Positions 2,591-45,382 of a stretch of DNA of 64,000 nt are shown piece by piece. A model generated the notes under the pieces. That model was not told the origin of the DNA, did no database searches, and was given only the letters and a program-made list of their open reading frames with translations. The DNA lies in the NCBI GenBank assembly GCA_016700315.1, contig CP065013.1, positions 513,449-577,448 on the forward strand. The letters are read 5' to 3'. A program made the translations under genes and the position numbers. The stretch's first letter is position 1, and every line of letters begins with the position of its first letter. This DNA is from Candidatus Saccharimonadota bacterium. Its GTDB lineage: Bacteria > Patescibacteriota > Saccharimonadia > Saccharimonadales > SZUA-47.

Positions 2591-3572
2591 ATGCGCTACA
2601 TCGATATCTATAGAGCCTGGCAAAGCTTCGTAAAGGCTAAAAAATACAGTACTTCGATTGACGAATTTGCCTATTATGTCGAGCAGAATCTTCAGCAACT
2701 TACTCGTGACACTGAAACGAGGACTTACAAACACGGCTCGTACAAAAGAGTTGTAATAAGCGAAAAGAAACGTCGTGATTTAGCGGTGGCTTCGGTCTGT
2801 GATCGTGTTGTTCACCGCTATGTCTACGACGAGTTAGTAGGGATTTTTGATAATTCTTTTGAGCCCGATGTCTTTTCTTGCCGCGAGGGCAAAGGCTTGC
2901 ACAAGGCTCTAGTAAGAACGCAAAAATTGCTGCAAAAATACTATGAATGCTATGTTTGGAGGGCTGATATTACCAAGTTTTTTGACTACGTAGACCAAGA
3001 CAAGCTATTGAGCATTATTGTTAGAAAAATAGATCCAAACAGTGAACTATTTTGGTTGTGCGAGCAGATAATCCAAAGTTATAATTCGAAGCCATCAGCC
3101 ATCAGCCATCAGCCATCAGCCATCAGCTGGCATCCCTATTGGCAATTTGACGTCTCAAATTTTTGCCAACATCTACCTAAATGAGTTCGACCGCTATGTG
3201 CGCCACCGGCTAAAACCTTTGGCATATTTACGCTACGGCGACGATTTCATCCTAATTTGTAAAACAAGAAAACAAGCATATGAGCAGAGGCTGCGGGCAA
3301 AAGAATTTTTGCAAACAGAGCTTGGGCTGAGCCTACACCAAACTAATGATGTTGCAGTAGCTGTTAAGCAGGGCCTACATTTCTTAGGACATGTGATCAC
3401 TTCCAAATTTTTAATAGTTGATAAACAAACCAGCAAAATTGCAGTGGCCAAAGTAAGCATTAAAAATGTAGCCAGCTACCGATCATTATTGCTTCTTGAA
3501 GTACTGCATAAGGAAATTAACTGGGAATTATTACAAATTATTGACAAAATATGTAGTAATGATGTATACTAG
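2591..3572 (+). CDS. DGR-type reverse transcriptase, split into ORFs 2591-3184 and 3147-3572 by a frameshift inside a heptanucleotide repeat
   Basis: RT motifs RRDLAVASVCDRVVH and SCREGKGLHKA are present. GIPIGNLTSQIFANIYLNEFD is encoded at 3129-3191 in the downstream frame and carries the DGR-typical IGxxxSQ motif. YLRYGDDFIL supplies the YxDD box. Removing one 7-nt unit fuses both halves into one ORF of about 324 aa. Confidence 0.85.
3091..3127 (+). repeat. (GCCATCA)x5 perfect heptanucleotide tandem repeat inside the RT gene
   Basis: Read directly from the sequence. It encodes KPSAISHQPSAIS in the upstream frame, and 35 nt is not a multiple of 3. Confidence 0.95.
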
Positions 3573-3597: not shown

Positions 3598-4437
3598 ATG
3601 TCACAAAGTCATACAGTCCAAGGTCTCTGGATACCCGAGAAGCCAAAGCCAGTTTTTGATGTCAATAGATTTGCCAAAGGAACTATCGATGTTTCGACAG
3701 AAGTCGATAGAGGTATCGAGCTTATTCGTATGGCTGGCGGCTTTAATGGCGGCGGCGATGAGGCTAAGTTACGCAACGACTTTACGACTGACCTTGTGGC
3801 GCTCGAACAAACTGGTTTGGCTATGCGCATCGTGCCTGATGTGCCAGGAACTAATCTACCCTTTAACAGCTTAATAGCCCTAATGGATGGAGTTAGACCT
3901 GAAGGCGTAGAAGAGGCATCTATTTACGATAAATTATGGGTACCAGGTGTAGAGGCTGACAGCCTAACTCCAGAACTACTTGCTGGCCCTGCTAAAAGGG
4001 TAGCCCTAAGAGGCCTGCTACTGAGCGTAAGCTCAGGTGACTATGACCCAGTCTTGCATCACCGAGGCCTACCAGCTGATGACCACGCCAAAGAAATGTA
4101 TGATCCTAGTGCCAAGACTACTCAAACTTCAGCGTTGACTCAAGATATCTCAGCTTTTGAAGCAACCTTCCCCGAACTCGATCTTAGAGGAGCTAGTTAC
4201 CGTGATTACGCGTTTTTGGTTACTGCATTCAGACGGAACTTGCGACCAGAGCCAGGTGCATTACCGCTATCTAGAGACTATATGCGCGATCTAGGCGTGG
4301 GACGCCACAATGTGGGCGGCGGCTCGGTCGTCGCGGGCGTCGACTCGGATGGTGGTTGGGCTCGCTTCGACGGGGGCAGTGGCCACGCGAATGACCTCGC
4401 TGGCGTCGGCCTTTCGGCGGGGCGAAAAGACTCTTAG
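3598..4437 (+). CDS. DGR target (variable) protein with the VR at its extreme C-terminus
   Basis: 279 aa with an RBS-like AGGAG 8 nt upstream. The last 39 codons or so are the VR. The C-terminus GGGSVVAGVDSDGGWARFDGGSGHANDLAGVGLSAGR is Gly/Asp-rich. No signal peptide or TM helix is seen. Confidence 0.8.
   Translation: MSQSHTVQGLWIPEKPKPVFDVNRFAKGTIDVSTEVDRGIELIRMAGGFNGGGDEAKLRNDFTTDLVALEQTGLAMRIVPDVPGTNLPFNSLIALMDGVRPEGVEEASIYDKLWVPGVEADSLTPELLAGPAKRVALRGLLLSVSSGDYDPVLHHRGLPADDHAKEMYDPSAKTTQTSALTQDISAFEATFPELDLRGASYRDYAFLVTAFRRNLRPEPGALPLSRDYMRDLGVGRHNVGGGSVVAGVDSDGGWARFDGGSGHANDLAGVGLSAGRKDS
4311..4427 (+). other. DGR variable region (VR)
   Basis: Ungapped 117-nt match to 4662-4778 at a constant offset of 351. 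There are 15 differences, all at TR adenines. Confidence 0.9.
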
Positions 4438-4661
4438 ACTTTGAGCTTTAATCTTTATTTTCTTCTTTTTTTGTTGCTAAACTGAAATTAGCTTTGTATT
4501 GCCAAGATGATCGCTAGTTTGGGTATATAACTCTGAAATTACGCTGATCGGGAATCAAAGAACAAAGTGTATTTTGCCCCGCGTGCGGCTGCCTACAAAA
4601 ATGAATTAAAACACCTTATGTTCTCGAACATTAGGTTGCTCGAAGTAGGTAGCGAACAAAC

Positions 4662-4778
4662 TGTGGGCGGCGGCTCGATCGTCGCGAGCGTCAACTCGGA
4701 TGATGGTTGGGCTAACTTCGACAGGGACAATGGCAACGCGAATGACAACGCTGGCGTCGGCCTTTCGGCAAGGCAAAA
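4662..4778 (+). other. DGR template region (TR)
   Basis: Non-coding copy of the VR that carries A wherever the VR differs. Its adenines sit in AAC/AAT/GAC-type triplets. The ORF-track ORF 4567-4884 merely mirrors it. Confidence 0.9.
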
Positions 4779-11867: not shown

Positions 11868-12292
<425 letters not shown>

Positions 12293-13636: not shown

Positions 13637-14863
13637 ATGTTAAGAAAGTTTTTAAAGCGTTTTGTACCACAAACCCATTACTGGCGTAATCTTGGCTTTG
13701 ACGAGCTGGCAGAAATATACGCCAGTCAACTCCTTCGCTCGCTCGCACTCAGCCTGGTAAACGTATTTGTGCCGGTGTATTTGTACTCAATCGGCTATAA
13801 CTTATCGCAGATTTTTCTGTTCTTTTTTAGCTGGTTTGTCGCGCGGCTGTTTTTTACGCCGATGGCTGCTTTTGTGATAGCTAGAATTGGGCCCAAGCAT
13901 AGTATTTTGCTGTCCCAAATTATTCAAATCTTGTATCTTAGCATGCTAATGAGTCTGAAGACTCTAAATTGGTCGCTTTACGGCGTTGCAATGGTAGGTT
14001 CGGCAGCCCTCTCACTGTTTTGGGTGGCTTTTCACACTGATTTGTCGAAGGTGCGACACCCTGACCATGCCGGCAAAGAACTATCTTACGTTAATGTTTT
14101 TGAGAGGGTAGGTGCTATAATCGGACCGCTAGTTGGTGGGCTAATCGCAAACTTTTTTGACCCACGCTACACTATTTTCTTAGCACTTGTTACCATGGTC
14201 TTGTCGTCATTACCGCTTCTCGCCACCAAAGAGCCAGTTAGGCTCAAACAAAAAATTACCTTTCGTGGATTCCCTTACAAAACGAATTTCAGTACTAGTC
14301 TAGCCTCGACGGCTTATGATCTAGACACCCAGTCTTGCCAGATAGTCTGGCCACTTTTTGTGTCTATTGCAGTTTTTGGTGATAATGTTTTTGGTAAATT
14401 AGGCCTGATGACAGCGCTAAGCGTCGCGCTAGGGCTAATTTTTACCCATACTATCGGACGACTGATTGACGACAAAAAGGGCGGGGAACTATTTCGTTTT
14501 AGCGCTCTGTCGAACGCTGCCGTCTATCTTTTCAGGCCTTTTGTTGGCAGTCTCAGCTCGGTTTTTGCAATCAACTTCATCAACGATCCCGTTACAACAG
14601 GTATGCGTATGCCTTATCTAAAAGGCTATCATGATGAGGCCGAGAATCACGAAGGTTATCGAATTGTCTTCTTTGCTGTAAATGAGTTGGTATCGTCGTT
14701 GTTTCGTGCAGTATTTTGGGCAATTTTGTTTCTGCTCAGTCAAAATTTGCCAGCGATAGTTGTTATGAGATGGCATTTTTTGGGCATGAGCGTGTTGGTG
14801 CTACTGATTTTCGCTCAGAAATTCCCCTCATTGAAAAAGGCTAGCAGGGACGAAAATCCTTAG
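13637..14863 (+). CDS. MFS-type transporter
   Basis: 408 aa with about 12 hydrophobic segments. Confidence 0.55.
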   Translation: MLRKFLKRFVPQTHYWRNLGFDELAEIYASQLLRSLALSLVNVFVPVYLYSIGYNLSQIFLFFFSWFVARLFFTPMAAFVIARIGPKHSILLSQIIQILYLSMLMSLKTLNWSLYGVAMVGSAALSLFWVAFHTDLSKVRHPDHAGKELSYVNVFERVGAIIGPLVGGLIANFFDPRYTIFLALVTMVLSSLPLLATKEPVRLKQKITFRGFPYKTNFSTSLASTAYDLDTQSCQIVWPLFVSIAVFGDNVFGKLGLMTALSVALGLIFTHTIGRLIDDKKGGELFRFSALSNAAVYLFRPFVGSLSSVFAINFINDPVTTGMRMPYLKGYHDEAENHEGYRIVFFAVNELVSSLFRAVFWAILFLLSQNLPAIVVMRWHFLGMSVLVLLIFAQKFPSLKKASRDENP

Positions 14864-14869
14864 CAAAAT

Positions 14870-15003
14870 GGTAGTTGGTAGTTGGTAGTTGGCGTAAGTC
14901 TAAACTCGTCCCTAGCTCTTAGCTCCTAGTCCATAGACCCTAGTCCCTAGCTTTTGGCTCAGTACTCACTGAACATGACTCATGTGTCTTGGCTTTCGTT
15001 TCT
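14870..15003. repeat. Heptamer-chain intergenic element (H1)
   Basis: (GGTAGTT)x3 is followed by CCCTAGC TCTTAGC TCCTAGT CCATAGA CCCTAGT CCCTAGC TTTTGGC TCAGTAC TCACTGA ACATGAC TCATGTG TCTTGGC, all in a single 7-nt register. Confidence 0.8.
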
Positions 15004-15097
15004 TCCATAAACCCTTACCCATAGTGTTTCTGCAAAAGCTAAGCCCCCTAACAAGCTAAGTTATTACTTGAATAGGGGGCAATCGACAAGCTTAAAA

Positions 15098-16241: not shown

Positions 16242-16841
16242 CTACAGTGATCGGCGAATCTTGCTTCGGTACCACCAGAGAATAATTCCATTGATGAATA
16301 AGGACATGAGCGCTATGCAAAGTGCCAGTAAGCTCCAGCCGGCCACATCTGGTGACCAACGAGGACTTACAAAATCAAACTTATAGAGTCCGTCTGGTAT
16401 ATCTTTGAGAATAACGCCGTGGCTCGAGACATACTCTGTTATACATGGTATCCTGGGGCCACCGAAAAAAGCTCCGGGAAAACGACGCTCACATTCAGCT
16501 TGGGCGTCGCTATAAATTGTTGCACTACTAGCTTGTAGTTTAGCCTGCTCCGCTGCTACCAAACGATCATAGGTACCTTTCAGCTGGATCGGCGGATAAA
16601 CCCCTGTAGGACTGCCGATTGTGGTATTCATATGAGCATAAATAAATTCGCGTAGTCTTGTAAGTGCGGTTTCGACATCTCCGCCAGATTGATCAATCGC
16701 TATCAGTTCATCATAACGCTTCTTAGCCTCCTTGCTATTATTTACCAGAGAACTGATCGTCAACAGTCCGAATAAGGTTGCAAGCAGGCCGCTAACAGCG
16801 AAGGCAATAACTCTCTTCTGTACAATGTCGCGTTTAGCCAT
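16242..16841 (-). CDS. Hypothetical membrane protein with N- and C-terminal TM helices
   Basis: 199 aa. No family recognised. Confidence 0.55.
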   Translation of the reverse strand: MAKRDIVQKRVIAFAVSGLLATLFGLLTISSLVNNSKEAKKRYDELIAIDQSGGDVETALTRLREFIYAHMNTTIGSPTGVYPPIQLKGTYDRLVAAEQAKLQASSATIYSDAQAECERRFPGAFFGGPRIPCITEYVSSHGVILKDIPDGLYKFDFVSPRWSPDVAGWSLLALCIALMSLFINGIILWWYRSKIRRSL

Positions 16842-16895: not shown

Positions 16896-17168
16896 AGTCA
16901 ATAGTTAATAGTTTATGGTTTATAGATAAATACTGATGAGTCTTTGCTGTGTACCTCGCACTCCGTACCGCGTACTGTTCAAATAGAGCCAAGAGTCAAG
17001 AGTCATGAGCCAAGAACTAGGGACTAGGGACCAGCAAGTATTACCCCGTACCTCCTACGGACCAGGGTCTAGGATCTAGGGTCTAATTCATACTTGATAC
17101 TATCTTCGTTTATAATTTAGAGCTTAGGGTTTAGAGTTTTCCCCTCGTTCCTCGTTCCTCCAACCTCG
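16896..17168 (+). repeat. Heptamer-chain intergenic element (H2), left arm of an inverted pair
   Basis: About 39 consecutive 7-nt units in one register, for example AGCCAAG AGTCAAG AGTCATG AGCCAAG AACTAGG GACTAGG GACCAGC. Positions 16903-17151 are the reverse complement of 21704-21966. Confidence 0.85.
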
Positions 17169-17187
17169 GCGTGTTAGAATAAAAGTT

Positions 17188-17940
17188 ATGAACATAATCG
17201 AGGTAAAAAATCTTACAAAAGTTTACAGTGGCAAAAAAGCCGTAGACGGCATAAGTTTTAGCGTTAAAAAAGGCGAAGTTTTTGGCATTTTAGGTCCTAA
17301 TGGGGCCGGCAAGACTACAACTCTGGAAATGCTTGAAGCTCTACGAGAAATCGATGGCGGCGAGGCCTTCATCGACGGCATAAACGTTGCGGAAAAACCT
17401 TACGAAATTCGCCGGATTATCGGTGTACAGCCACAAAGTCCGAGCTTCCAAGACAAAACTAAGCTCACAGAACTGCTAGAAATGTTTTCGGCTGCTTACG
17501 GCGAAAAGGTAAACACCAAGAAATTTCTAGATAGCGTTCAGTTGCTGGATAAAAAAGATTCATTCATAGAGAATCTCAGTGGCGGCCAAAAACAACGTTT
17601 CTCAATTGCGGCAGCTCTGGTTCATCGCCCTAAAGTCTTCTTCCTTGATGAGCCAACCACAGGCCTTGATCCTCAGGCGCGGCGCAATCTGTGGGACCTG
17701 ATCCGCGACATCCAAAAGCGCGGCACTACGGTTATACTTACGACGCACTACATGGACGAAGCCGAACTACTTTGCGACCGTATTGCAATCATGGACAACG
17801 GCCGCATTATCAAGCTCGATACACCTAAGAATCTTATCAAACAATTGCTTGGCAAGGGGTTCAAGAAAGAGCAGCACGTAGAACAAGCAAACTTAGAAGA
17901 TGTTTTTATCGATTTAACCGGTAAGGAGCTACGAGTATGA
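17188..17940 (+). CDS. ABC transporter ATP-binding protein (ABC-2 exporter type)
   Basis: Walker A GPNGAGKTT, signature LSGGQKQR, Walker B VFFLDEPTTGLD. Confidence 0.9.
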   Translation: MNIIEVKNLTKVYSGKKAVDGISFSVKKGEVFGILGPNGAGKTTTLEMLEALREIDGGEAFIDGINVAEKPYEIRRIIGVQPQSPSFQDKTKLTELLEMFSAAYGEKVNTKKFLDSVQLLDKKDSFIENLSGGQKQRFSIAAALVHRPKVFFLDEPTTGLDPQARRNLWDLIRDIQKRGTTVILTTHYMDEAELLCDRIAIMDNGRIIKLDTPKNLIKQLLGKGFKKEQHVEQANLEDVFIDLTGKELRV

Positions 17941-19052
17941 GTGTCAAGCGTAAACTATACACCGTCTATGCTTTTACTAAAATCAATACTAAACGGTTTT
18001 TTCGCGATCGATTAGCCATCTTCTTTACGGTCATTTTTCCTCTCATCTTTCTGTTTATATTCGGTGGACTTTTTGGCAAAGACACAAGTGTAAGTTTCAA
18101 CATCGCGTTACTCAATAACTCTGGCAGCCAATTTTCTAAGGATTTTGACAAAAACATCCGCGAAGCAAAAGTTTTCAAGGTAAGTGACAAGGCAAATAAT
18201 CTTGATGAGGCCAAGGAAAGAATGAAGCGGGGCGAGCTTGATGGCATAATTATTCTCCCTGAGTCTTTTGGTCAAATCACTGCCGGGCAGACCACACCAA
18301 GCGGTCAAGCAGAAGTACTGTACGCCCAAAACAACGACCAGGCTGGAACGGCTCTGACCTCTGTACTGCAGAGCGTCATGAAGGACATCAACAAGGGCTT
18401 TGGGACGGTCAGTGAGCCGTTCACTGTAAAGGCCGAGGCTAGTAACGACAAGGGACTGTCTAGGCTGGACTATACTTTTGCTGGTCTGCTAGGCTTTTCT
18501 ATCCTAGGAGTTGGTATATTTGGACCTATGAATGTCTTTCCAGAGCTAAAAAAACAAGGAATCTTGCGCCGACTGCATACTACAACATTGCGAGTGTGGC
18601 AGTATTTCTTATCAACCGCAGCATCACAAGTGGCGGTAGGGATACTCTCTTTTGCCATTCAGTTCGCCGTTGCCATTGTGCTGTTTGATCTAAAAGTAGT
18701 TGGAAATTATCTCGAGTTGATCGTTTTCTTGATGCTTAGTACTGTCATGATGCTTGGTATCGGTTTGGCACTTGGTGGCTGGGCTAAGAATGAGCGACAG
18801 GTAGCTCCGCTCGGAAATCTTATCACTTTTCCGATGATTTTTCTTTCAGGCGCCTTCTTTCCAAGATTCATCATGCCAGAGTGGCTACAAAAAGTTAGCG
18901 ATTATATCCCTCTAACTCCGATTATCGACGGAGTTAGACTTATCGCAACAGAAGGTAAGCACCTGACCGAAATTGGATCGCAGGTCGGGCTAGTAGCGGC
19001 CTGGTTAGTGGTAGTCTATCTCATTGCCTTCCGCGTCTTCCGCTGGGAGTAG
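17937..19052 (+). CDS. ABC-2 family transporter permease
   Basis: 4-nt overlap with the ATPase gene. An N-terminal TM helix, a large loop, then five TM helices. Confidence 0.8.
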   Translation: MSVKRKLYTVYAFTKINTKRFFRDRLAIFFTVIFPLIFLFIFGGLFGKDTSVSFNIALLNNSGSQFSKDFDKNIREAKVFKVSDKANNLDEAKERMKRGELDGIIILPESFGQITAGQTTPSGQAEVLYAQNNDQAGTALTSVLQSVMKDINKGFGTVSEPFTVKAEASNDKGLSRLDYTFAGLLGFSILGVGIFGPMNVFPELKKQGILRRLHTTTLRVWQYFLSTAASQVAVGILSFAIQFAVAIVLFDLKVVGNYLELIVFLMLSTVMMLGIGLALGGWAKNERQVAPLGNLITFPMIFLSGAFFPRFIMPEWLQKVSDYIPLTPIIDGVRLIATEGKHLTEIGSQVGLVAAWLVVVYLIAFRVFRWE

Positions 19053-19097
19053 CAGGACTACCTTGCAAACAGAGCTTAAGCGTGATATAGTATATTT

Positions 19098-19394
19098 ATG
19101 CCTAAAGTTAATCCCAATCAACCAAGACTTTTTGCAGATGATGATATGGGCAAATTGTTAACTACTGCCGTTCGTGCAGGCGAACTAATAGTGGAAGCTA
19201 CTATGGATGCAAGTATACCCGGCGCAACCATGCCGACTGATTTAAGACGAAAAATTGATACTAGTCTAGGAATTAGCCCAGACCTACCTGAAGAAGATAA
19301 GCAAAAAGCTCGAGAAGCGGCTAGGTTAGCAAGTGCTAGTAGAACTAGGTTGAGGGAAGAAGCGGCTGCTCGGCACCAGCCTAACAGGTATTAA
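19098..19394 (+). CDS. Hypothetical protein
   Basis: 98 aa, charged. No family recognised. Confidence 0.45.
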   Translation: MPKVNPNQPRLFADDDMGKLLTTAVRAGELIVEATMDASIPGATMPTDLRRKIDTSLGISPDLPEEDKQKAREAARLASASRTRLREEAAARHQPNRY

Positions 19395-19416
19395 TTTATT
19401 CTTAGGCTAACATAAG

Positions 19417-20745
19417 ATGGCAAAAACTCGACCAAACCCAATGCAAGATCCTCTCTTCCCAACAGCTGGTGGAGAGTTTTTTCTCCCTCAAGCAGAGGCT
19501 AGCAATGAAGTTCAACCGTTAGTAAGGAACTTGCAGCTAGTTAACGTTTTAGACTATTTTACAGAGATAGCTAGACTAGAAACGTTTATAAAGTATGGAA
19601 GTACCAAAGACGGTAAAAAAACTCTAGCAAAGCAGTACGGCGGACAAGCTGGGGCTGAGGATGTGTTGCTTAGGTCGCAGTTACGACGCGTAGAACTAGA
19701 CAAAGCAGCAAAACTTGAATACATGCGCGCCGAGGGGTTGTTTGTAGAGTTAGATGCTGGCAAGATAACCCAAAGGGATGCGTGGGAGAAGGCAAGGTCT
19801 GGCTACAGGTCTTTTGCTGAGGAATATGGCTTCACACACCAAAATTCACAGCGTGCAAAAATACGAGAGGAATTGCTAGCTTCTGTCAGACAAAGACAGG
19901 ACTTGGTTACATCAGTACGTAAAAAGTCGGATCTATCTAAAGACGATAATGATAAGCCCAAGCCTATTGATGATCAACTCGACACATGGACTAAGCTACA
20001 AGTAATAAAAAATGATCCTCGGGCCGGTTTTATACCCGCTACAAATCACGAAAAAACAATTGTTCTGGCTTGGTTGGATTACCTGGACAACCCCGTATAT
20101 CCATTTGGTATCAGAAACCAAACCATAGAAATCTATCTTTCCCAGATAGCAAAACATGGCGCTCAAGGCAGAGACTTTGGGGTTCAGGCAGCCGTCAGTC
20201 GTGCATACGAGTTGCAGGACATTCTAACGGATGCTGAGATCTCACTACAACTCTTAAAAGCCTTCCAGTTAGAAGTCGCAGATACGCCTAACCCAGACGT
20301 TTACCTTGAGCAAGAATTTGGCGAGAGCCATCCAGCTTACGCAGTATTGATACGATTTAGAGATCTAAGAGAGCTTGCCCTCACCGGTACAGTAGAAGGT
20401 TTGCGAGGTTCAGCTCTTCGTAGCACACGAAATGAAGAAGCTGTCCCTGATGAGCTAATAGGTCAAAAAAATAAAGTCATTGAAGGCCCCTATACATCAT
20501 TGAAGCTCACCAAGGCTATCGCAAGACGAATTAAGACACAGCCCAAAAAACTGAAAGTTGGTGATGTGCGTAATGACTTTGAAGAAGCGATTGCTGATCA
20601 GGAAATGCGTCGTGATTTTGCCAGAGCCCGCCTAGAAGATATGGCTACAGGAGCTGATGAAAAAGACGAATTGTTGCTAGCCTCTTCAACTGTTGCTCGC
20701 TCCATTCTAGGCTTAAGCAATGAGCTAGATTTGGTAACTGTGTAA
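19417..20745 (+). CDS. Hypothetical protein (442 aa)
   Basis: Long clean ORF with no recognisable motifs. Its stop overlaps the dus start. Confidence 0.6.
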   Translation: MAKTRPNPMQDPLFPTAGGEFFLPQAEASNEVQPLVRNLQLVNVLDYFTEIARLETFIKYGSTKDGKKTLAKQYGGQAGAEDVLLRSQLRRVELDKAAKLEYMRAEGLFVELDAGKITQRDAWEKARSGYRSFAEEYGFTHQNSQRAKIREELLASVRQRQDLVTSVRKKSDLSKDDNDKPKPIDDQLDTWTKLQVIKNDPRAGFIPATNHEKTIVLAWLDYLDNPVYPFGIRNQTIEIYLSQIAKHGAQGRDFGVQAAVSRAYELQDILTDAEISLQLLKAFQLEVADTPNPDVYLEQEFGESHPAYAVLIRFRDLRELALTGTVEGLRGSALRSTRNEEAVPDELIGQKNKVIEGPYTSLKLTKAIARRIKTQPKKLKVGDVRNDFEEAIADQEMRRDFARARLEDMATGADEKDELLLASSTVARSILGLSNELDLVTV

Positions 20746-21731
20746 TGCAGAAATTACTTAAGCCCTTTTTTGTCCTAGCGCCGATGGACGATGTTACGGA
20801 CTGCGTTTTTCGGCAAATCGTGGCTGATTGTGCTAGCCCTGACCTTTTTATGACGGAGTTTATCAACTGCGAGAGTTTGCAAAGTGCTGGCCGTAAAGCC
20901 ACCTATACTCGCACGCTTTATAACGACAAATCAAACCAGGTAATAGCTCAGATATGGGGCAAAATGCCAGAGCATTTTGAGAAATCTGCTCACGAGCTTA
21001 TGCAAATGGGCTTTCACGGTATAGACATAAACTTTGGCTGCCCAGAGAAAACCGTCGTCAAGAACGATTGCTGTAGCGCTATGATCCGTCCTGAAGGCCG
21101 AGAAGCGGCCCTAGAGCTGATTAGGGCTGCCAGGCGGGGAATTGGCTGTGACGGGTTTTTGAGTGTCAAAACAAGGCTCGGATTTAACGAGATAGACTAT
21201 TCTTGGCACGAGCTTCTACTCAAAGAGGGCTTGCAGATGCTAACTGTCCACGTGAGGACACGCAAAGAAATGAGCAATGTGCCGGCCAACTATGAGGCAA
21301 TTAGGCCAATCGTTAAGCTGCGTGATAAGTTAGCACCTAGCACCAAGATTGTCCTAAATGGTGATATCGAAAACCGCTGTCATGGCGAGGAGCTGGCTGC
21401 AAAATACGGTGTTGATGGCCTGATGATTGGGCGTGGAATCTTCCACGATCCGTTTGCTTTTGCTGGCAACAGTCAGTGGAATGCGATGGACGCAGACCAA
21501 AAGATCGGGCTTTTTGTAAAACACCTCCAGCTTTTTAAGGCCACTTGGCCGAATGGTGAACGTAGCTATCAAACCATGAAAAAGTTTGCCAAAATTTATA
21601 TCAACGGCTTCGACGGCGCCAAAGCTATTCGTGAACAAATCATGCAAACTAACAGCGTCGACGAAGCTCTAGAGCTGATAGCTAGTCCGACAAAGGCGGA
21701 CTTGGAACGAGGGGAAAACTCTAAACCCTAA
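20745..21731 (+). CDS. dus: tRNA-dihydrouridine synthase
   Basis: LAPMDDVTD...DINFGCP...VHVRTR is typical of the Dus FMN TIM barrel. The last 9 codons or so lie inside repeat H3. Confidence 0.85.
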   Translation: MQKLLKPFFVLAPMDDVTDCVFRQIVADCASPDLFMTEFINCESLQSAGRKATYTRTLYNDKSNQVIAQIWGKMPEHFEKSAHELMQMGFHGIDINFGCPEKTVVKNDCCSAMIRPEGREAALELIRAARRGIGCDGFLSVKTRLGFNEIDYSWHELLLKEGLQMLTVHVRTRKEMSNVPANYEAIRPIVKLRDKLAPSTKIVLNGDIENRCHGEELAAKYGVDGLMIGRGIFHDPFAFAGNSQWNAMDADQKIGLFVKHLQLFKATWPNGERSYQTMKKFAKIYINGFDGAKAIREQIMQTNSVDEALELIASPTKADLERGENSKP

Positions 21732-22006
21732 GCTCTAAATTATAAACAAAGATAGTATCAAGTATGAATTAGACCCTAGACCCTAGACCCTAGACCCTGG
21801 TCCGTAGGAGGTACGGGGTAATACTTGCTGGTCCCTAGTCCCTAGTCCCTAGTTCTTGGCTCATGACTCTTGACTCTTGGCTCTATTTGAACAGTACGCA
21901 GTACGGAGTACGAGGTACGCAGCAAAGAGTCATCAGTATTTATCTATAAACCATAAACTATTAACTCAACCCTGGTCCCTAATCCCTAAACACTCTAACC
22001 TCTAAC
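21704..22006 (-). repeat. Heptamer-chain intergenic element (H3), right arm of the inverted pair plus an extra module
   Basis: Contains (TAGACCC)x4, (TCCCTAG)x3 and GTACGCA GTACGGA GTACGAG GTACGCA. It differs from H2 by SNPs and by two exact 7-nt indels. Confidence 0.85.
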
Positions 22007-22339
22007 CTAGTTTCTTGAGCCCCAGCTCGACATCATGTCTAAGATGTCACAGAGGCCTTGACCCTTATGTGTCAGAGAGTAGCGATATCGCGGAGGGTGC
22101 TTACAATAAAGTGTTTTCTCAACGATCTTTTCTCTTTGAAGTTTGTCTAAGCGGGCACTTAGCGTGCGTGGGCTTATTCCGACTAAGCTAGACTCCAACT
22201 TGCTAAAGGGCAAGCCTTGTTCGGAAATTTGAGCAAGTATTAGAGCTGTCCATTTGTCACCCAAAATCTGAAGAGTGGCATCAATAGAGTTCAGTTTGTT
22301 TTTGGGCTTAGCTTTGGTTAGTCGGGTAATAATTGCCAT
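22007..22339 (-). CDS. HxlR-family winged-helix transcriptional regulator
   Basis: LQILGDKWTALIL...GISPRTLSARLDKLQREKIVEK...YSLTHKG. Confidence 0.8.
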   Translation of the reverse strand: MAIITRLTKAKPKNKLNSIDATLQILGDKWTALILAQISEQGLPFSKLESSLVGISPRTLSARLDKLQREKIVEKTLYCKHPPRYRYSLTHKGQGLCDILDMMSSWGSRN

Positions 22340-23254: not shown

Positions 23255-23490
23255 ATGCGTAGGGCGGCTGGGGTTGAGTTAATAGTTTATGGTTTATAGA
23301 AAACTGCTGAATACCGTTTACTGAAGACTGTTTACTGTGTATCGAATGAAACTAATACGTACCGTGTACTGTGCTAGGTTAGAGGTTAGAGTGATTAGGA
23401 AGGCTACGGACCAGGGACTAGGGTCTAGGGACTATTTTATAATTTAGAGCTTAGGATTTAGAGTTTTCCCCTCACGTTCACTGTTATAAT
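23255..23490 (+). repeat. Heptamer-chain intergenic element (H4)
   Basis: GTTAATA GTTTATG GTTTATA ... AGGTTAG AGGTTAG ... CTAGGGT CTAGGGA ... GAGCTTA GGATTTA GAGTTTT CCCCTC. It shares its end modules with H2 and H3. Confidence 0.8.
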
Positions 23491-25696: not shown

Positions 25697-25738
25697 AAGA
25701 AAAAAGCCCCAGATAAACTGGGACTCTTTTCTTGGTAG
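25697..25738 (-). repeat. 42-bp perfect copy of the sequence immediately 3' of tRNA-fMet (CCA tail plus terminator)
   Basis: Identical to 26581-26622. Confidence 0.85.
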
Positions 25739-26388
25739 GCATGGATAGGATCGCTTGGAATCAAATTAAGGAAGAATTAACCATTTCTTTTAAGATGTAA
25801 TCGGACCTTTTGAAGTCGCTAGCCCTCTACACGAAGTCGATTAGGGCACTTTCTGTACTTAAATCTATTTTAACCTGCTGGTCAAAAAAAGATGCCAAAG
25901 GATTATTAAAGATCCACTCCTTCCAGTTTTCAATTCTCTGCAATTCTGCTGGGCGCTCAAGTTGAAGCAGAGGTATATGTAGTTCATTTGCAATTATATC
26001 TAGGTGTGATGTCCCTACCGGCTGTGAGGCAGCTTTATTAGCTGGATGCACTCCAAAAGTCAAGACTCCAGCGAATCTATCTTCGGCCCGCATTTCTTCG
26101 ATTGTAGATATTTCAAAAAGAGCGTCTAATTCATCGATAAACAGTGCTATGACTTTTGAGGATGACAAGGGTCTAATTCGTTCCCAACTATCGTTTAGTT
26201 GTACTTCATACTCTGAATAACGAATACCATTGTCGTAGGCAATTACGCCCTCGATTACATCGGGACAATAGGCATTACGTTTTGCAATAGAATATTCAGC
26301 CATGCTACATATATTATATACTAAAAAGTAAACTATACAAGCCCGCGCAGAACAAAAAGAACGGTTCTAAACCGTCCTAATCCGGATG
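25739..26388. mobile_element. Candidate 650-bp insertion flanked by a 9-bp direct repeat
   Basis: TCTTGGTAG occurs at 25730-25738 and 26389-26397. The ends are imperfectly inverted (GCATGGATAGGA vs the reverse complement CATCCGGATTAGGA). The only cargo is the 158-aa ORF. Confidence 0.35.
25827..26303 (-). CDS. Hypothetical acidic protein (158 aa)
   Basis: Clean ORF. No family recognised. Confidence 0.5.
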   Translation of the reverse strand: MAEYSIAKRNAYCPDVIEGVIAYDNGIRYSEYEVQLNDSWERIRPLSSSKVIALFIDELDALFEISTIEEMRAEDRFAGVLTFGVHPANKAASQPVGTSHLDIIANELHIPLLQLERPAELQRIENWKEWIFNNPLASFFDQQVKIDLSTESALIDFV

Positions 26389-26580: not shown

Positions 26581-26583
26581 AAG

Positions 26584-26610
26584 AAAAAAGCCCCAGATAA
26601 ACTGGGACTC
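26584..26610 (-). terminator. Terminator after tRNA-fMet
   Basis: The minus strand reads GAGTCCCAG-TTTAT-CTGGGGC followed by TTTTTT. Confidence 0.55.
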
Positions 26611-26616
26611 TTTTCT

Positions 26617-26691
26617 TGGTAGCGGGGGCAGGACTTGAACCTGCGACCTCATGGTTATGAGCCATGCGAGCTGCCACTGCTCCACCCCGCG
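26617..26691 (-). tRNA. tRNA-Met (CAT), initiator-like
   Basis: CGCGGGGTGGAGCAGTGGCAGCTCGCATGGCTCATAACCATGAGGTCGCAGGTTCAAGTCCTGCCCCCGCTACCA. It closely resembles E. coli tRNA-fMet and has an unpaired C1 x T72 position. Confidence 0.9.
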
Positions 26692-36853: not shown

Positions 36854-38650
36854 ATGAACCAATCACACATTCGTAACTTTTGTATTATCGCGCATATTGA
36901 TCATGGCAAGTCGACTTTGGCTGATCGACTACTAGAGTTGACTGGAACAGTTCAGAAGCGAGATATGAAGGCGCAGTTGCTCGACAAAATGGATCTAGAA
37001 CGTGAGAAGGGTATCACTATTAAGCTTGCTCCTGTGCGTATGGATTATGAACTTGACGGAGCAAAAAAGTATCAGCTGAATCTTATCGATACCCCAGGTC
37101 ATGTAGATTTTAGCTACGAAGTAAGCCGTAGTCTGCAGGCTTGTGAGGGCGCGATTTTGGTTGTGGATGCCGCGCAGGGTATACAAGCACAGACGCTCGC
37201 TAATGTTTATTTAGCTATTGAGGCAGATCTCAAAATCATTCCCGTGCTTAACAAAATCGATCTGCCGGCCGCCGATGTTGAAAGAGTTAGCACGGAGGTG
37301 GTAAGTCTACTTGGCTGCTCCAAGGAAGAGATTATTCTTATTAGCGCTAAAACTGGGCTGGGCGTCGAGGAAGTACTTCGCGCTGTCGTTGAGCGGATTC
37401 CAGCTCCATCAGACGATGGTGATCCAGAAACAAAGGCTCTTATTTTTGACAGCTACTACGATGATTATCGCGGAGTTGTACTTTATGTTCGAGTGGTCGA
37501 CGGTGCAATTGGCAAGAGTTCTGAAGTTCATATGATCGGTAGCAGTGCCGATGGTGTGGCCTTAGAAGTTGGGCACTTGAGCCCAGAAATGAAGCCAGAC
37601 CAGCAGCTAGCTAAAGGCGAGATTGGCTACATTGTGACTAACCTGCGTTCAACTCGTGAGGCTAAGGTTGGCGATACGGTAACACTTGTCAAGGCGCCTG
37701 CCTCGTCCCCATTGCCGGGCTACAAAGAAGTGACGCCGTTTGTTTACGCTGGGTTTTTCCCAGAGAGCAACGAAGATTACCAGAACCTAAAAGATGCCAT
37801 CGAGAAGTTGTCTCTCAGTGATTCGGCACTACAATACAGTCTTGAAAATTCGCCTGTGCTCGGTTTTGGAGTAAGAATCGGCTTTTTGGGACTGCTGCAT
37901 ATGGACATTGTGCGGGAGCGTTTGGCCCGCGAATATGACCTAAGCTTGGTTGTCACAAACCCCTCAACAGATTATTACGTAGGTATGAAAAACGGCGATC
38001 GGCTACATATAAAGTCGGCTAGTGAGCTGCCGGATCAAACCATGTTCGACTCGATCGAAGAGCCTTGGATAAAGGGCGAAGTTGTTTGCCCTAAAGAGTT
38101 CGTCGGATCTGTTATTCAGCTCATATCTTCTAAGCGGGGGGTTCAAAAAAATCTGTCCTATGTTGACGCCCAATTGGCGCTAATAAGTTTTGATGCGCCA
38201 CTCGCTAACCTGCTGACCGACTTCTATGATCAACTCAAAAGCATAACTAGCGGCTACGGCTCGTTTAACTACGAACTCAGCGGTTACCGCGCCGAAGATT
38301 TAGTAAAGGTAGACTTCTATGTTGCTGGGGATAGAGTAGATGCTCTCAGTGTCATGACGCACCGCTCGGAATCTCAAGCACTGGGGCGTGACACTGTTAA
38401 AAAGCTGAAAGAGATTATCCCTCGTCAGAACTTCCAGATTGCACTCCAAGCCGGTATCGGCGGTAAGTTTATCGCACGTGAAGACATCTCAGGCTACCGC
38501 AAAGATGTAACGGCCAAACTCTACGGTGGCGATGCTAGCCGCCGCAAAAAACTACTCGAAAAGCAAAAGAAGGGCAAAGAACGCATGAAGCGCTTCGGTA
38601 AAGTCGATATCCCTAGCGAGGCTTTCACAGTCTTACTAAAGCGCGATTAA
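36854..38650 (+). CDS. lepA: Elongation factor 4
   Basis: IRNFCIIAHIDHGKSTLADRLL, DTPGHVDF, NKIDL, and the LepA C-terminal domain. Confidence 0.95.
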   Translation: MNQSHIRNFCIIAHIDHGKSTLADRLLELTGTVQKRDMKAQLLDKMDLEREKGITIKLAPVRMDYELDGAKKYQLNLIDTPGHVDFSYEVSRSLQACEGAILVVDAAQGIQAQTLANVYLAIEADLKIIPVLNKIDLPAADVERVSTEVVSLLGCSKEEIILISAKTGLGVEEVLRAVVERIPAPSDDGDPETKALIFDSYYDDYRGVVLYVRVVDGAIGKSSEVHMIGSSADGVALEVGHLSPEMKPDQQLAKGEIGYIVTNLRSTREAKVGDTVTLVKAPASSPLPGYKEVTPFVYAGFFPESNEDYQNLKDAIEKLSLSDSALQYSLENSPVLGFGVRIGFLGLLHMDIVRERLAREYDLSLVVTNPSTDYYVGMKNGDRLHIKSASELPDQTMFDSIEEPWIKGEVVCPKEFVGSVIQLISSKRGVQKNLSYVDAQLALISFDAPLANLLTDFYDQLKSITSGYGSFNYELSGYRAEDLVKVDFYVAGDRVDALSVMTHRSESQALGRDTVKKLKEIIPRQNFQIALQAGIGGKFIAREDISGYRKDVTAKLYGGDASRRKKLLEKQKKGKERMKRFGKVDIPSEAFTVLLKRD

Positions 38651-38764
38651 TAGCTATGCTCTTCATGCGTTCTTTTGATTGCCGGGGTCCCCAAAAAACA
38701 TGTTTTTTGGGGTGTGGCCGCATGAAGCGCTTCGGTAAAGTCGATATCCCTAGCGAGGCTTTCA
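38582..38764 (+). repeat. 46-bp perfect direct repeat of the lepA 3' end flanking a 91-bp insert with a 24-nt palindrome
   Basis: 38582-38627 equals 38719-38764. The palindrome CCCCAAAAAACATGTTTTTTGGGG is at 38689-38712. Confidence 0.85.
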
Positions 38765-42104: not shown

Positions 42105-42320
42105 ATGGATAAGTACCCAATTTCACCAGAAGAAAGAAAAAAGATTGAGGCCGCCGATGAAGCTTCTAGAGCTGAGGCTGCGCAAATCCTAGGTCCTCAG
42201 GTTGCCGAACAGTTTTTCGCTTACACCGATGCTAAAAGACAAGAACTAAAACCATCCAGCATCACTCGTGAAGAGGCCTACATGTACAGGCAAAATACCG
42301 GTAGCGAAGAAGGCTTTTAA
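42105..42320 (+). CDS. Hypothetical protein (71 aa)
   Basis: ORF only. Its stop codon lies within the putative target-site duplication of the transposon. Confidence 0.4.
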   Translation: MDKYPISPEERKKIEAADEASRAEAAQILGPQVAEQFFAYTDAKRQELKPSSITREEAYMYRQNTGSEEGF

Positions 42321-42324
42321 AAAA

Positions 42325-43363
42325 CCAGCTTCACATAACTCCTAATCTGTAGTCTCATCCAATTAGCAGAGGTTGCGTCAGCAGCCTCTGTTGTGGTTTT
42401 GTGTAGTGTATTGAGGGTTTCTTTGGTTGTAGCTGGTAGCATATTAATCCGCTGAGTAGGTTGACTACGAAGTTGTTAGGGCTTCGGTGTCTAGTGTGTT
42501 CGATCTGTTGGGTATTTTTGAGCTGATCGTTGATGGTCTCGATGATGGATCGCTTTCTCAGCATCAGTTTATCCCAGAGGCTCATCAGATGATTCTTCAT
42601 GTTGCGTCTAATGCCTGTGATGAGATGAACACCCTTTTGGAGTGGTGAAAGAAATAGCTCGTGTCCAATGTAACCTTTGTCAGCATAGAGTTTGCCCGTT
42701 AGCTTTTCTGTCAGTTTGAGCATCAGTGCTTGATTGTTGTCTGGGGCGTGACCTGGTGAGAGCAGGAATGAGATGATCTCACCTCGTTCATTGAAGGTCA
42801 GATGCAGTTTCAAACCAAAGAACCAGCCCATGGAGCTCTTGCCTCTGGTTGCAATGCCTTTGAAGACTCGATGCTTCCAGATCCGCTTGTTGTTACAAAC
42901 ATCCAGTGTCGTACTGTCCACGAAGTTGACGAGTGTGGCTGGTGCGAGAAGACTGATCATGAGAGCAAGGAGTGGCAACATACTCTCACGCATCAGTCTG
43001 AGGAATCGTGTATAGCTAACCCTGTTTGGGAAGGCATCAACCAGATGCATGCAGATATGTTCAAGGTAGTATTTCTTGAACTGACGATAGCCGCTGGCAT
43101 GAAACCAGATACAGATAGTCAGTCATTACTTCAGAGAGTGTCATGGCACCCTGTTTGTTACGAACCCGTTCTCCAGATTCAATCTGTTTTGATCTCCACT
43201 CAGGCTCAAATTTCTTGCAGAACTCGTCAACGATGTAGAATAGTGTTACTAGCTCCATATACGTGTCTCCTTTTTGTTTTATGTTTTGTTACAGAAACAG
43301 AATAACAGGGCTGACGCCCTGTTATCTACAAAACAAAATGGGGACTCTTATGTGAAGCTGGGG
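42325..43363 (-). mobile_element. IS982-family insertion sequence, copy A
   Basis: About 1.04 kb with terminal inverted repeats (CC)CCAGCTTCACATAA. It is identical over the aligned parts to copy B at 45383-47535. Confidence 0.85.
42355..43258 (-). pseudogene. IS982-family DDE transposase, frameshifted (65-aa plus 231-aa ORFs)
   Basis: FHASGYRQFKKYY can be read only after a frame change. A TGAC TGAC tandem duplication at about 43118-43125 accounts for this. DDE-region motifs are ...DSTTLDVC...ADKGYIG... Confidence 0.8.
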
Positions 43364-43530
43364 TTACCTACTATGCTGGAAAGATCGAGCGTGGCCTATC
43401 AACGCTTGAGCCAAAGCCACTTAATAGCACCTTTAATGAGTCCGCCAATATGAGTGATGCTGACTTACGAAAATTATCGACGTTAGCAATTAAGCTGCCA
43501 GGACTTGACCGAAATCTTACCAAAATCAAA

Positions 43531-44151
43531 CTACTGAGCTAGCTCGATCGTATTAAGCAGTGCTGTATCGCCCTGATTGACTAGCTGGAACGCTGTACCT
43601 TCTGGTTGACAGTTGCTTTCAGCATCACCGTATGTACCAACACAAGCTGCCCCTGTAGCAAGACTACTGAAAGCCCAGCCAGTGTAATAATAGTAGGGGC
43701 CAACTTTCTTACCTTCTTTGATCATATCGCCAGCAAAAGGCTTTGTGCTATTAGTAGATCTGTATAGGTTACCTATTGCGTATTCTGAAAGACCGTCAGC
43801 GTACTTGTCATAATCAGTCCTATACTGAACATCTGTCCCGGTAGGCTTGGCAAAGAAAGCCAATGTATCACCGTGAATTGTGTACTTGATGTCAGTCAAG
43901 CCGCTAGGGGCCTTGAAGCGCAGTCCCCACTCTTTCACTACAAAGTAACCCCCGTTAGGGTCAGTTTTATTCGTGGGCTCAGCAGTAGCCTCTTCCTTCT
44001 GCTCAATAGTGTTGGTTTGGGAGGTTGGGTATTCAGTTGTTTTAGTTTTTTGGCGGTTATAGACGAGCCAGCCAACAGTACCAAGCAAACCAATCACTAC
44101 AATAACAACCAGTATTTCTACAACCCCAAAACCCTTTTGATTATTTTTCAT
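43531..44151 (-). CDS. Type IV pilin-like protein (prepilin N-terminal domain)
   Basis: The start at MKNNQKGFGVVEILVVIVVIGLLG fits the G|FxxxE class III signal. Located inside the composite transposon. Confidence 0.6.
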   Translation of the reverse strand: MKNNQKGFGVVEILVVIVVIGLLGTVGWLVYNRQKTKTTEYPTSQTNTIEQKEEATAEPTNKTDPNGGYFVVKEWGLRFKAPSGLTDIKYTIHGDTLAFFAKPTGTDVQYRTDYDKYADGLSEYAIGNLYRSTNSTKPFAGDMIKEGKKVGPYYYYTGWAFSSLATGAACVGTYGDAESNCQPEGTAFQLVNQGDTALLNTIELAQ

Positions 44152-44251
44152 CTCAGCAGCCCACACCTTTCTTAAAGTTTGAAATCGTTTGCCCCCAGTA
44201 TAATCCTACAGCTTAATGTTTGTATATAGGACTAGGTTTCATTACTTAGTT

Positions 44252-44500
44252 CTAAAGACATTTATACATATCAGGCGCAAAAGACCTGAAAATGACGATT
44301 ATAAGTGCTAAAACTAAAATCATTCTTACATTTTTTTGATGTAAGGATTTTTTCATTTCAGGATTTGAAATTGATTTATTAGCTTTAGTCTCTTTAGCAA
44401 TTATTATTATAGCTACAAATATTAAAAGTAGTGTGATCACATCTTTAAAGTCGAGTACTCTAGAACAACTGTACATTGTCATTTTTGCGATAATATCCAT
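44252..44500 (-). CDS. Small hypothetical membrane protein
   Basis: 82 aa with two hydrophobic helices, in a very AT-rich segment. Confidence 0.35.
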   Translation of the reverse strand: MDIIAKMTMYSCSRVLDFKDVITLLLIFVAIIIIAKETKANKSISNPEMKKSLHQKNVRMILVLALIIVIFRSFAPDMYKCL

Positions 44501-44634
44501 TACTAATTTATCCTTTACTTTATTTAGTAATACTTAAACTGGCTAAGTATATAATTAGTATAATAGTTAATATTACAAGTATTTTTTTAATCATTATAGT
44601 ATTAACATTAACACAATTCGTGTATTATTAGCTA

Positions 44635-45048
44635 GTGAAACAGCAAGAAGAATTATACTTATCAAAATTAGCAGTGTTTGGAGTAGGGTTTTTGTGTGCT
44701 ATGATAGCTTTTCAAAAAGATTTGTTTATTTTTACTGCGATCCCTCTGTTGCCATTTGTAGTATTACTGTTGTTAGCCGCAAGGTCGAGCGCCGTAAAGA
44801 TAATTAATAACCAAATGTCTACTACTAAAACAGCTAAAGAAATTTACATTCTGCTTTTGATCTTAGTGCCATTCAATTACTTAAGTATGCCACATGTCGC
44901 ATCAAATGGCCCCAGTAAAGCTTTCGTCTTCATCGAAAACGCTTCCGATCAGTTGCTGGCTACTTCTTTTAAAGCATTTTTAATAAGCGGACTGCTGATT
45001 TTGATCTTGACCGTAGTAATCGTTTTCTTAGAACCAAGAAAAAATTAA
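44635..45048 (+). CDS. Hypothetical membrane protein
   Basis: 137 aa with four hydrophobic segments, AT-rich. Followed by the terminator GACTTTCT-N8-AGAAAGTC plus a T-run at about 45127-45157. Confidence 0.4.
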   Translation: MKQQEELYLSKLAVFGVGFLCAMIAFQKDLFIFTAIPLLPFVVLLLLAARSSAVKIINNQMSTTKTAKEIYILLLILVPFNYLSMPHVASNGPSKAFVFIENASDQLLATSFKAFLISGLLILILTVVIVFLEPRKN

Positions 45049-45159
45049 AAAACTACGATTGTTCGAGCATACGGATACTAACAATATCTAAGCCTTAGTT
45101 TGGTGATAAAGATCGAAGTATACTTCGACTTTCTGCACCATAGAGAAAGTCTTTTTTTA

Positions 45160-45382
45160 AGACGGAAGTTACGGAGGGTCGTGAGAGGTTCGACCGACTT
45201 TCAGCCGGCCCGCAATAACATCTTTGAAAACAAGTTTTCAAGACTTGATTGCCTTGCAGTAAGTCCTTGGCTCGTTTCACCCCGACCCCTCGGCCGAGGG
45301 TGTTGCGTGTCCGAGGCCAACTCCGCTAGAACCTATTTTGAGGAAAAATGTTGAATGAGACAAGCCCCGCCGCCTAGTATAA
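45160..45382 (+). ncRNA. Candidate structured RNA fragment (tmRNA-5'-like?), cut off by IS982 copy B
   Basis: GC-rich island next to AT-rich DNA. GGGTCGTGAGAGGTTCGAC at 45176 resembles the tmRNA 5' consensus GGGG...GGxTTCGAC. The 14-nt palindrome CCCTCGGCCGAGGG is at 45287-45300. No 3' tRNA-like half is present. Confidence 0.2.

Follow-up and report, generated by a model that had tools for sequence, protein, structure and literature searches.

Two largely non-coding DNA elements of about 250 nucleotides (nt), inverted relative to each other, bracket five genes in the genome of a Candidatus Saccharimonadota bacterium (assembly GCA_016700315.1, contig CP065013.1, positions 513,449 to 577,448; these 64,000 nt are hereafter the window, and its own numbering is used throughout). 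Such an arrangement raises the question of whether the enclosed genes, which run from an ABC exporter pair to dus, invert between the two elements or arrived with them as a mobilised cassette. An initial annotation of the window had put forward both possibilities. We found the five-gene block in both orientations between the same flanking genes in assemblies of the same species, and we found it at the same place, without the elements, in more distant relatives. On the best explanation, the two elements, or arms, belong to an intergenic repeat that is restricted to this lineage and consists of heptanucleotide arrays joined in chains, each arm being one copy. The fuller account, in which homologous recombination between these arms inverts a resident block, slippage changes their length and the inversion is neutral for expression, appears likely.

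An inverted pair of heptamer chains around five genes

The features used below are the following (aa, amino acids).

16242-16841, minus strand: gene for a 199-aa membrane protein without a Pfam family; left flank marker for orientation
16903-17151, plus strand: left arm, about 35 heptamers in one register, outer end AGTTAATAGTTTATGG..., inner end ...TTTATAATTTAGAGCTTAGGGTTTAGAGTTTTCCCCTCGTTCC
17152-17187, plus strand: unique leader of 36 nt, carried along with the block, containing TGTTAGAAT (17172-17180)
17188-17940, plus strand: ABC ATPase, one half of an ABC-2 type exporter pair (Pfam ABC_tran, 3e-29)
17937-19052, plus strand: ABC-2 permease, the other half of the pair (Pfam ABC2_membrane_3, 7e-44)
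19098-19394, plus strand: 98-aa open reading frame (ORF), no family
19417-20745, plus strand: 442-aa ORF, no family
20745-21731, plus strand: dus, tRNA-dihydrouridine synthase (Pfam Dus, 5e-45)
21704-22008, minus strand: right arm, of which 21704-21966 is homologous to the left arm and 21967-22008 adds six heptamers
22007-22339, minus strand: gene for an HxlR-family regulator (Pfam HxlR, 8e-21); right flank marker for orientation

A repeat search and MAFFT alignment paired the left arm (249 nt) with the reverse complement of 21704-21966 (263 nt). The two differed by six substitutions and two exact 7-nt gaps: ACTAGGG was present twice in the left arm and three times in the right, and the AGGGTCT-type unit three and four times, respectively, one of the left-arm units reading AGGATCT. 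The inverted repeat and the unit counts were thus as the initial annotation had described them, and ORFs and Pfam matches likewise agreed with its list of enclosed genes (ABC_tran, ABC2_membrane_3, 98-aa, 442-aa, Dus). Because the blastn match between the arms had E = 3e-105 within the 64-kb window, a chance origin is excluded. Identity was 92% over the alignment, with gap columns counted as mismatches; the gap-free segments comprised 132 nt at 96% and 110 nt at 90% complementarity, and uninterrupted identity reached about 85-130 nt. The arms are therefore long and similar enough for homologous recombination.

Both arms consisted, over their whole length, of period-7 arrays detected by the program TRF, that is, of 7-nt units arranged in tandem, head to tail. 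The fraction of matches at a lag of 7 nt was 0.56 in the left arm (z = 11) and 0.61 in the right arm scored through to 22008 (z = 14.5), where shuffled sequence gave 0.25; across the repeat copies it ranged from 0.51 to 0.61 against 0.25 shuffled (z = 7.7-14.5). In each copy, about 35-44 heptamers followed one another without a change of the 7-nt register. The right-arm chain ran six heptamers beyond the homologous part, in register, through 21967-22008, to reach the HxlR stop codon, which brings it to 44 consecutive heptamers in a single register. In order, these include AGGTTAG AGGTTAG ... TACCTCG TACTCCG TACTGCG ... AGCCAAG AGTCAAG ... GACTAGG (three times) ... AGGGTCT (four times). A structured RNA or riboswitch was considered as an identity for the arms and rejected: their folding was no better than that of shuffled sequence (z = 0.15 and 1.15), and an Rfam scan of the window returned four tRNAs and nothing else.

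Both orientations among conspecific assemblies

Conspecific contigs were collected by exact-protein look-ups with Dus, HxlR, the 199-aa protein (which gave 23 contigs), the ABC ATPase and DivIC. Junctions were classed by anchors on flank and block-end sequences, and duplicate views of one contig were removed. Every orientation call comes from assembled short-read metagenome contigs or metagenome-assembled genomes (MAGs), not from reads, and the junction contigs contained no N gaps. The junctions were distributed as follows, the first two being those of the window.

199-aa gene/ABC, five contigs: window, L011 (GCA_029781765.1), L012, L015 (GCA_041909835.1), L027
HxlR/dus, six contigs: window, L009, L011, L015, L032, L036
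199-aa gene/dus, three contigs: L004, L013, L024
HxlR/ABC, one contig: L013

Both orientations of the block thus exist between the same flanks at the level of assemblies. L013 (JGI 3300045392, 12.3 kb) reads DivIC-HxlR-arm-ABC-ABC2-91 aa-246 aa-dus-arm-199 aa-..., so that the entire block is cleanly inverted while its flanks are as in the window. The arms of L013 were not collapsed by the assembler, because they are clearly different in length, 284 nt on the HxlR side and 249 nt on the 199-aa side. A further contig, L038, had the same HxlR-linked arm type as L013 and stopped short of ABC. The closest comparison was between L004 and L012, which come from separate samples. Their block sequences were 100.000% identical over 3279 nt, in opposite orientation, and their arm and flank 99.83% identical over 6004 nt, in the same orientation, with 3 mismatches in 6 kb of flank.

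Orientation also followed the content of the block. The slot between the ABC-2 permease and dus (19098-20745 in the window; L004 1869-3136; L013 3766-4785; in the more distant relative L005, 4878-6222) is allelic within the species and holds genes for 98 + 442, 107 + 313 or 91 + 246 aa, while the sequence around it is at least 98% identical. The 98 + 442 cassette was in the window orientation in all cases (window, L011, L036) and the 91 + 246 cassette was inverted in all cases (L013, L024). The 107 + 313 cassette was in the window orientation in L012, L015 and L032, and inverted once, in L004.

The L004 arm (199/dus) equalled the L012 arm (199/ABC) over 291 nt bar one single-nucleotide polymorphism (SNP) 25 nt from the inner end, at which L004 carried the allele linked to dus in L015. 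Because this inner-end SNP stays with dus, the L004 crossover would lie within a stretch of ~85 nt common to both parental arms. The HxlR/ABC arm of L013 equalled the 199/ABC arm of L015 except for its outermost bases, which were of HxlR type, and this points to an exchange near the outer end. With parental arms deduced in this way, the three crossovers would fall in the inner 25-110 nt (L004), the outer 6-60 nt (L013, HxlR arm) and the last 21 nt (L013, 199 arm). The arm type with five ACTAGGG units was seen at 199/ABC, 199/dus and HxlR/ABC junctions, and arm interiors were mosaic between strains. In L011 (3234-3668 and 4913-5146), the right arm and the copy upstream of sodC had swapped interiors relative to the window (21704-22008 and 23275-23474), with gene order the same, which suggests a double exchange or gene conversion between two inverted copies. 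The apparent crossover positions differ between cases, and taken together the pattern would indicate repeated homologous exchange and gene conversion between copies and not a single site-specific event.

Length also varied in whole units. Among orthologous arms whose flanks were ~99% identical, ACTAGGG occurred two, three or five times and AGGGTCT two, three or four times (for instance, three times in L002 and L009 against four in the right arm of the window). Between comparable anchors, arm lengths differed by 7, 14, 35 or 42 nt, and in L004 and L012 a 42-nt insertion consisted of six GTAC-type heptamers. This variation bears out the earlier suggestion that heptamers are still being gained and lost, and it fits slippage or unequal exchange in 7-nt steps.

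We consider the inversion of the block, which the initial annotation had proposed, to be probably real on the evidence of these assembled sequences, because L013 combines non-identical arms with both novel junctions, because three independent 199/dus junctions run through three arm variants, and because orientation correlates with cassette type. Several observations weigh against it. The HxlR/ABC junction was present in one contig only, L013, and the 199/dus arm of that contig was 100% identical to the left arm of the window, so that the exchange there would have taken place in the last 21 nt or would have involved an unseen parent arm. An assembler working at low coverage can make a false linear path through an inverted repeat, and Logan contigs stopped exactly 30 nt into each arm (k-1). 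L004 began ~110 nt inside the ABC gene, after 33 foreign nucleotides, and its sample yielded no complementary junction, the HxlR contig L033 ending 58 nt into the arm; a low-coverage false join at L004 is possible. A rival explanation extends this to all inverted contigs, which would be misjoins, while the arms would be a local repeat placed in inverted orientation by coincidence, with no inversion in cells. That many contigs broke in or at the arms (L001, L003, L008, L010, L014, L016-L019, L033) speaks in its favor, as do the missing junction in the L004 sample and the fact that L004 and L012 are otherwise virtually identical, as expected if one of the two assemblies was misjoined. Yet the 199/dus junction came from three independent assemblies, of three samples, with arm variants of 291, 249 and 284 nt, and L013 holds both novel junctions, gap-free, with arms that differ every 50 nt or less and are resolvable at k >= 55. 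The L004 inner-end SNP is the dus-linked allele, as a true crossover predicts, and both contigs with the 91 + 246 cassette are inverted. We thus regard misassembly as an unlikely explanation.

L020 (OFRO01006738.1, 1781-2679) matched the window at ~99% identity through the arm, the leader and ~135 nt from the start of the ABC ATPase gene, and identity then fell abruptly to ~70% at the Walker A codons (window ~17322). The 33 foreign nucleotides of L004 end at the Walker A motif, where L020 identity also drops. These breaks result from either recombination between lineages or a chimeric assembly at the conserved motif.

Origin of the block and consequences of its probable inversion

We compared synteny in relatives outside the species. 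The names of the source organisms of Dus homologues, together with the nearest GTDB representative, identify the host as Patescibacteria/Saccharibacteria-like. L007 (Dus 70% identical) had ABC-ABC2-dus and a convergent HxlR gene overlapped by dus, and L005 (Dus 72%) had ABC-ABC2-...-132 aa-314 aa-dus, both without arms. L044 and L047, also without arms, read Mur ligase ... ABC-ABC2-small gene-433/445-aa-dus-HxlR(-)-...-DivIC, and their 433/445-aa proteins are homologues of the 442-aa protein at 33-34% identity. The block is thus present without arms in distant relatives, in the window orientation and at the same chromosomal place, and inverted in some conspecifics. Because these armless relatives (L007, L005, L044 and L047) keep both gene order and place, the five-gene block is an ancestral resident to which the arms were added later, and because they show the window orientation, that orientation is the ancestral one. 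A foreign origin of the block was rejected, since composition was even across it, with no shift in GC content or skew.

The dus stop codon lies at 21731, 28 nt into the right arm, which thus encodes the last eight sense codons and the stop (ERGENSKP*), close to what had been claimed from the sequence. Because the Dus proteins of relatives end ~14 residues earlier (...EALELIAS), the 14-residue C-terminal extension in the window, which the alignment showed to be non-conserved, is a read-through into the element. An extra A in the arm of L011 and L024 turns the tail into ERGEKL*.

The two-gene slot is kept in distant relatives. In the 98 + 442 and 107 + 313 alleles, the small proteins have a C-terminal ...AARHQPxR[FY] motif in common; by blastp, the large proteins of the slot alleles are unrelated. 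None of these orphan genes had a Pfam, PHROG or PADLOC match. The 442-aa protein had only five remote homologue clusters, and its AlphaFold model was all-helical (mean pLDDT 65), with no fold match in the PDB at E <= 0.001. For the 246-aa allele, no homologue was found beyond its own cluster, whose sole additional contig is 1.6 kb long.

We then considered what inversion would do to expression. The leader motif TGTTAGAAT is an extended -10-like sequence ending 7 nt ahead of the ABC start codon, and may serve as a promoter. The leader was also present at the HxlR/ABC junction of L013, after the HxlR-side arm. Within the left arm, a sigma-70-like pair, TTCATA-18-TATAAT (17087-17116, plus strand), faces inward, and its mirror lies at 21768-21739 on the minus strand of the right arm, where it would be antisense on the dus side. 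These were the top-scoring sites (10/12) between 16 and 24 kb. The total number of sigma-70-like sites was 13 against a shuffled expectation of 11.2, that is, not above it, and a promoter role for the arm-borne pair is doubtful. A promoter switch carried by the arms was rejected, as the site count equalled that of shuffled sequence, both arms face inward so that a flip alters nothing, and the third copy of the repeat (see below) lacks the -35 part. Whichever arm it adjoins, the block meets the same inner end, and the arm-encoded dus tail is kept either way. Because of this shared inner end and of the -10-like element in the leader of the ABC operon itself, inversion appears neutral for expression. 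In the inverted form, gene tables place HxlR, the ABC...dus operon and the 199-aa gene all in the same direction, and some effect of read-through is conceivable.

The mechanism we propose is as follows. The left copy occupies the gap between the 199-aa gene and the divergently oriented ABC genes, and the right copy lies at the dus 3' end, where it overwrites the stop region. The arms have up to about 85-130 nt of unbroken identity in common, so the 4.55-kb segment would be flipped by general (RecA-type) homologous recombination between the two, and slippage or unequal exchange among in-register heptamers would alter unit number in 7-nt steps.

Three other readings were weighed against homologous inversion of a resident block. 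The initial annotation had suggested that the arms might mark a mobilised cassette, either a composite-transposon-like unit or an inserted five-gene island. The block is indeed bracketed by inverted terminal repeats, and its interior two-gene cassette is swapped among strains. This reading is hardly credible in view of the order Mur ligase ... ABC-ABC2-(small + large)-dus-HxlR-...-DivIC in armless relatives (Dus 70-72% identical), which extends to armless lineages whose 442-aa homologue is 33-34% identical, and of the unshifted composition of the block. No transposase lies in the block, the ends of the arms are not complementary, which means that they have no terminal inverted repeats, and the flanks, on reading the sequences, showed no target-site duplication. 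A miniature inverted-repeat transposable element (MITE) or composite transposon was rejected on the same grounds. A second possibility was a programmed phase-variation switch, in which a site-specific recombinase encoded elsewhere would flip the block at a core site in the arms and change expression, for example by placing the ABC operon downstream of HxlR and in the same direction. Orientation differs between essentially identical strains, as would be expected if flipping were frequent; in the inverted form, one strand does carry HxlR, ABC...dus and the 199-aa gene alike; and the 199-side arm of L013 is intact to 21 nt from its inner edge. Against this stands the lack of any recombinase or invertase family within ~10 kb on either side (precomputed Pfam matches of the contigs, Pfam in the window). 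The only transposases in the window belong to insertion sequence (IS) genes at 42-47 kb, ~20 kb away, and the block itself holds no recombinase, its orphan ORFs having no family or fold match. Moreover, the arms (249-291 nt) are unlike the short repeats of known invertons (~10-40 nt), inferred crossover positions vary among cases, and no ON/OFF logic is visible, as both arms present the same inner sequence to an operon with its own leader. A programmed switch is therefore very improbable. The third reading goes further than ours, in that the heptamer chains would be an undescribed class of self-propagating, highly recombinogenic intergenic elements of Saccharibacteria-like bacteria, flipping ABC...dus so fast that clonal cells (0 differences in 3.3 kb) hold both orientations. 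If so, the register would be kept over ~300 nt while modules were exchanged between copies, and the flip-flop would be independent of a recombinase, possibly aided by G3N4 motifs, with regulatory effects such as HxlR read-through into the exporter operon. We regard this stronger claim as improbable.

The repeat family and its relation to known systems

The arms are not a unique pair, they are members of a locally clustered repeat family. Four members were seen in the 64-kb window, all inside 9 kb, the two besides the arms being:

23275-23474, plus strand: third copy, between a DivIC-like gene and sodC, found by blastn (repeat families D6 and D8, pairs I6 and I7)
14846-15006, minus strand: degenerate fourth member, between an MFS gene and a 79-aa gene, a heptamer-periodic tract with a blastn match to the arm interior

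The third copy has both termini as in the arms, with outer end AGTTAATAGTTTATGGTTTATAGA and inner end TTTATAATTTAGAGCTTAGGrTTTAGAGTTTTCCCCTC, and an interior that is shorter than those of the arms and different in sequence. All four members sit between ORFs, the sole coding overlap being the 28 nt of the right arm in the dus 3' end, so that the location of the family is mainly non-coding. In all, the window contained six heptamer-periodic tracts. Exact-pattern scans for the conserved inner module gave no match in GTDB representative genomes and a single match, L020, among JGI metagenome contigs. The element was absent from the nearest GTDB representative, L041 (a Candidatus Saccharibacteria MAG, Dus 67% identical). 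Outside the 14.8-23.5 kb cluster, another heptamer tract was noticed, a perfect (AGCCATC) x5.4 array at 3090-3127, in the overlap of ORFs 2591-3184 and 3147-3572.

Other repeats and tracts of the window lie away from this locus. Impure homopolymer tracts at 11890-12290 and 49700-49885, with T runs of up to ~90 nt and G runs of 16-36+ nt, have the appearance of sequencing or assembly artefacts, or of masked sequence, and not of a biological feature. In place of the first, L004 and L012 have a gene for a 180-aa AAA_33/KTI12-like kinase, and in L011 and L013 the neighbouring genes abut. Between grpE and dnaK lies a nested inverted-repeat structure (42315-47543), possibly an insertion resembling a composite transposon. 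In it, two inverted IS copies (DDE_Tnp_1_3 transposase; 856 nt, 100% identical) enclose 2 kb that include a pilin-like (N_methyl) gene; a gene for a Mutator-family transposase lies next to the second IS copy, and the outer inverted repeat measures 204 nt, at 98% identity. A perfect 42-nt direct repeat (25697-25738 and 26581-26622, 884 nt apart) surrounds a 158-aa ORF (25827-26303, minus strand), its second copy abutting the 3' end of a tRNA-Met gene (26617-26691, minus strand), and could be left over from an integration event at this tRNA. Two further direct repeats lie at 38582-38627 and 38719-38764 (46 nt, 100% identity, 137 nt apart, at the end of ORF 36854-38650) and at 4306-4427 and 4657-4778 (122 nt, 86% identity, 351 nt apart).

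Patescibacterial genomes are small and streamlined, and are regarded as poor in long repeats and structural variation. The locus is a testable case of an all-heptamer repeat family, of a type discussed mainly for cyanobacteria, Xanthomonas and Beggiatoaceae, and this family is associated with strain-level polymorphism in the form of inversion, 7-nt length changes and module swapping. There is also a practical warning, as contigs of this organism break at the arms and may be misoriented across them. Should flipping occur in clonal populations, the locus would serve as a simple natural system in which to measure how short inverted repeats recombine in uncultured bacteria of this lineage. Our literature search found no paper linking heptamer repeats with Patescibacteria, TM7 or Saccharibacteria.

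By their head-to-tail units, mainly non-coding location and whole-unit polymorphism, the elements are heptanucleotide tandem-repeat arrays, and the inversion is like other inversions mediated by homologous recombination between repeats. Such inversions are known between IS copies and between rrn operons, and from the flip-flop of the plastid inverted repeat. The likeness lies in a segment with inverted homologous bounds found in both orientations, without a nearby recombinase and with apparently variable crossovers. In contrast with the classical cases, the arms here are non-coding, built of heptamers and ~250-290 nt long, and the segment is small (4.55 kb). Invertons, such as the Hin, Gin and Fim systems and the invertible promoters of Bacteroides, are site-specific invertible segments. 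The locus resembles them in having an invertible segment with flanking inverted repeats and an orientation polymorphism between strains or populations, but it has no adjacent invertase, its repeats are ten times longer, and no promoter or coding switch results from the flip.

Among repeats, the enterobacterial bacterial interspersed mosaic elements (BIMEs) are intergenic mosaics that contain palindromic units of about 35-40 nt, the repetitive extragenic palindromic (REP) sequences. They share with the heptamer chains a mosaic of short modules whose combinations vary by locus and strain, and both are potential recombination substrates; the modules here are instead non-palindromic heptamer arrays without significant folding (z = 0.15 and 1.15). 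Heterocystous cyanobacteria reportedly carry short tandemly repeated repetitive (STRR) heptanucleotides, said to have been described by Mazel and colleagues in 1990, and an ACTG/ACTA core is said to occur in STRR1 (ACTGGGG, on the opposite strand) and STRR3 (ACTGTTG). Here, this core is found in the units TACTGCG, TACTGTT, TTTACTG and ACTAGGG. Intergenic tandem arrays, several different heptamers and a strain-variable copy number further liken the two; however, the present host is Patescibacteria/Saccharibacteria-like, ~35-44 mixed heptamers follow one another in one register, and they form a unit of 200-300 nt with two conserved ends that recurs at several loci, with four members within 9 kb. 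GGGNATC and GGGGA(C/T)T heptamer repeats are found in Xanthomonas and Nostoc (Rehm et al. 2015, PMC4692102). They resemble the present elements in their heptamers with G3 tracts (here AGGGTCT and ACTAGGG), intergenic location, variable unit number and frequent position within 50 nt of gene ends (PMC4692102). Runs of at least four G3 units, as in the right arm (four AGGGTCT) and in some strains (five ACTAGGG), would formally constitute a G3N4 quadruplex motif, but the G-rich arrays here are only two modules in a longer mixed chain. TAACTGA repeats occur between genes in Beggiatoaceae, cyanobacteria and Bacteroidetes (MacGregor 2015, PMC4679880), and related units, TTTACTGA and ATACTGA, were found here; in contrast, no single heptamer dominates in our arrays, and they are not clustered just upstream of start codons. 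As cited in that paper, heptanucleotides are the commonest class of long simple sequence repeats in bacteria, with polymerase slippage by 7 nt proposed (Mrazek et al. 2007, via PMC4679880). Set beside these systems, the inversion described here is mechanistically ordinary, yet it is a neat new instance.

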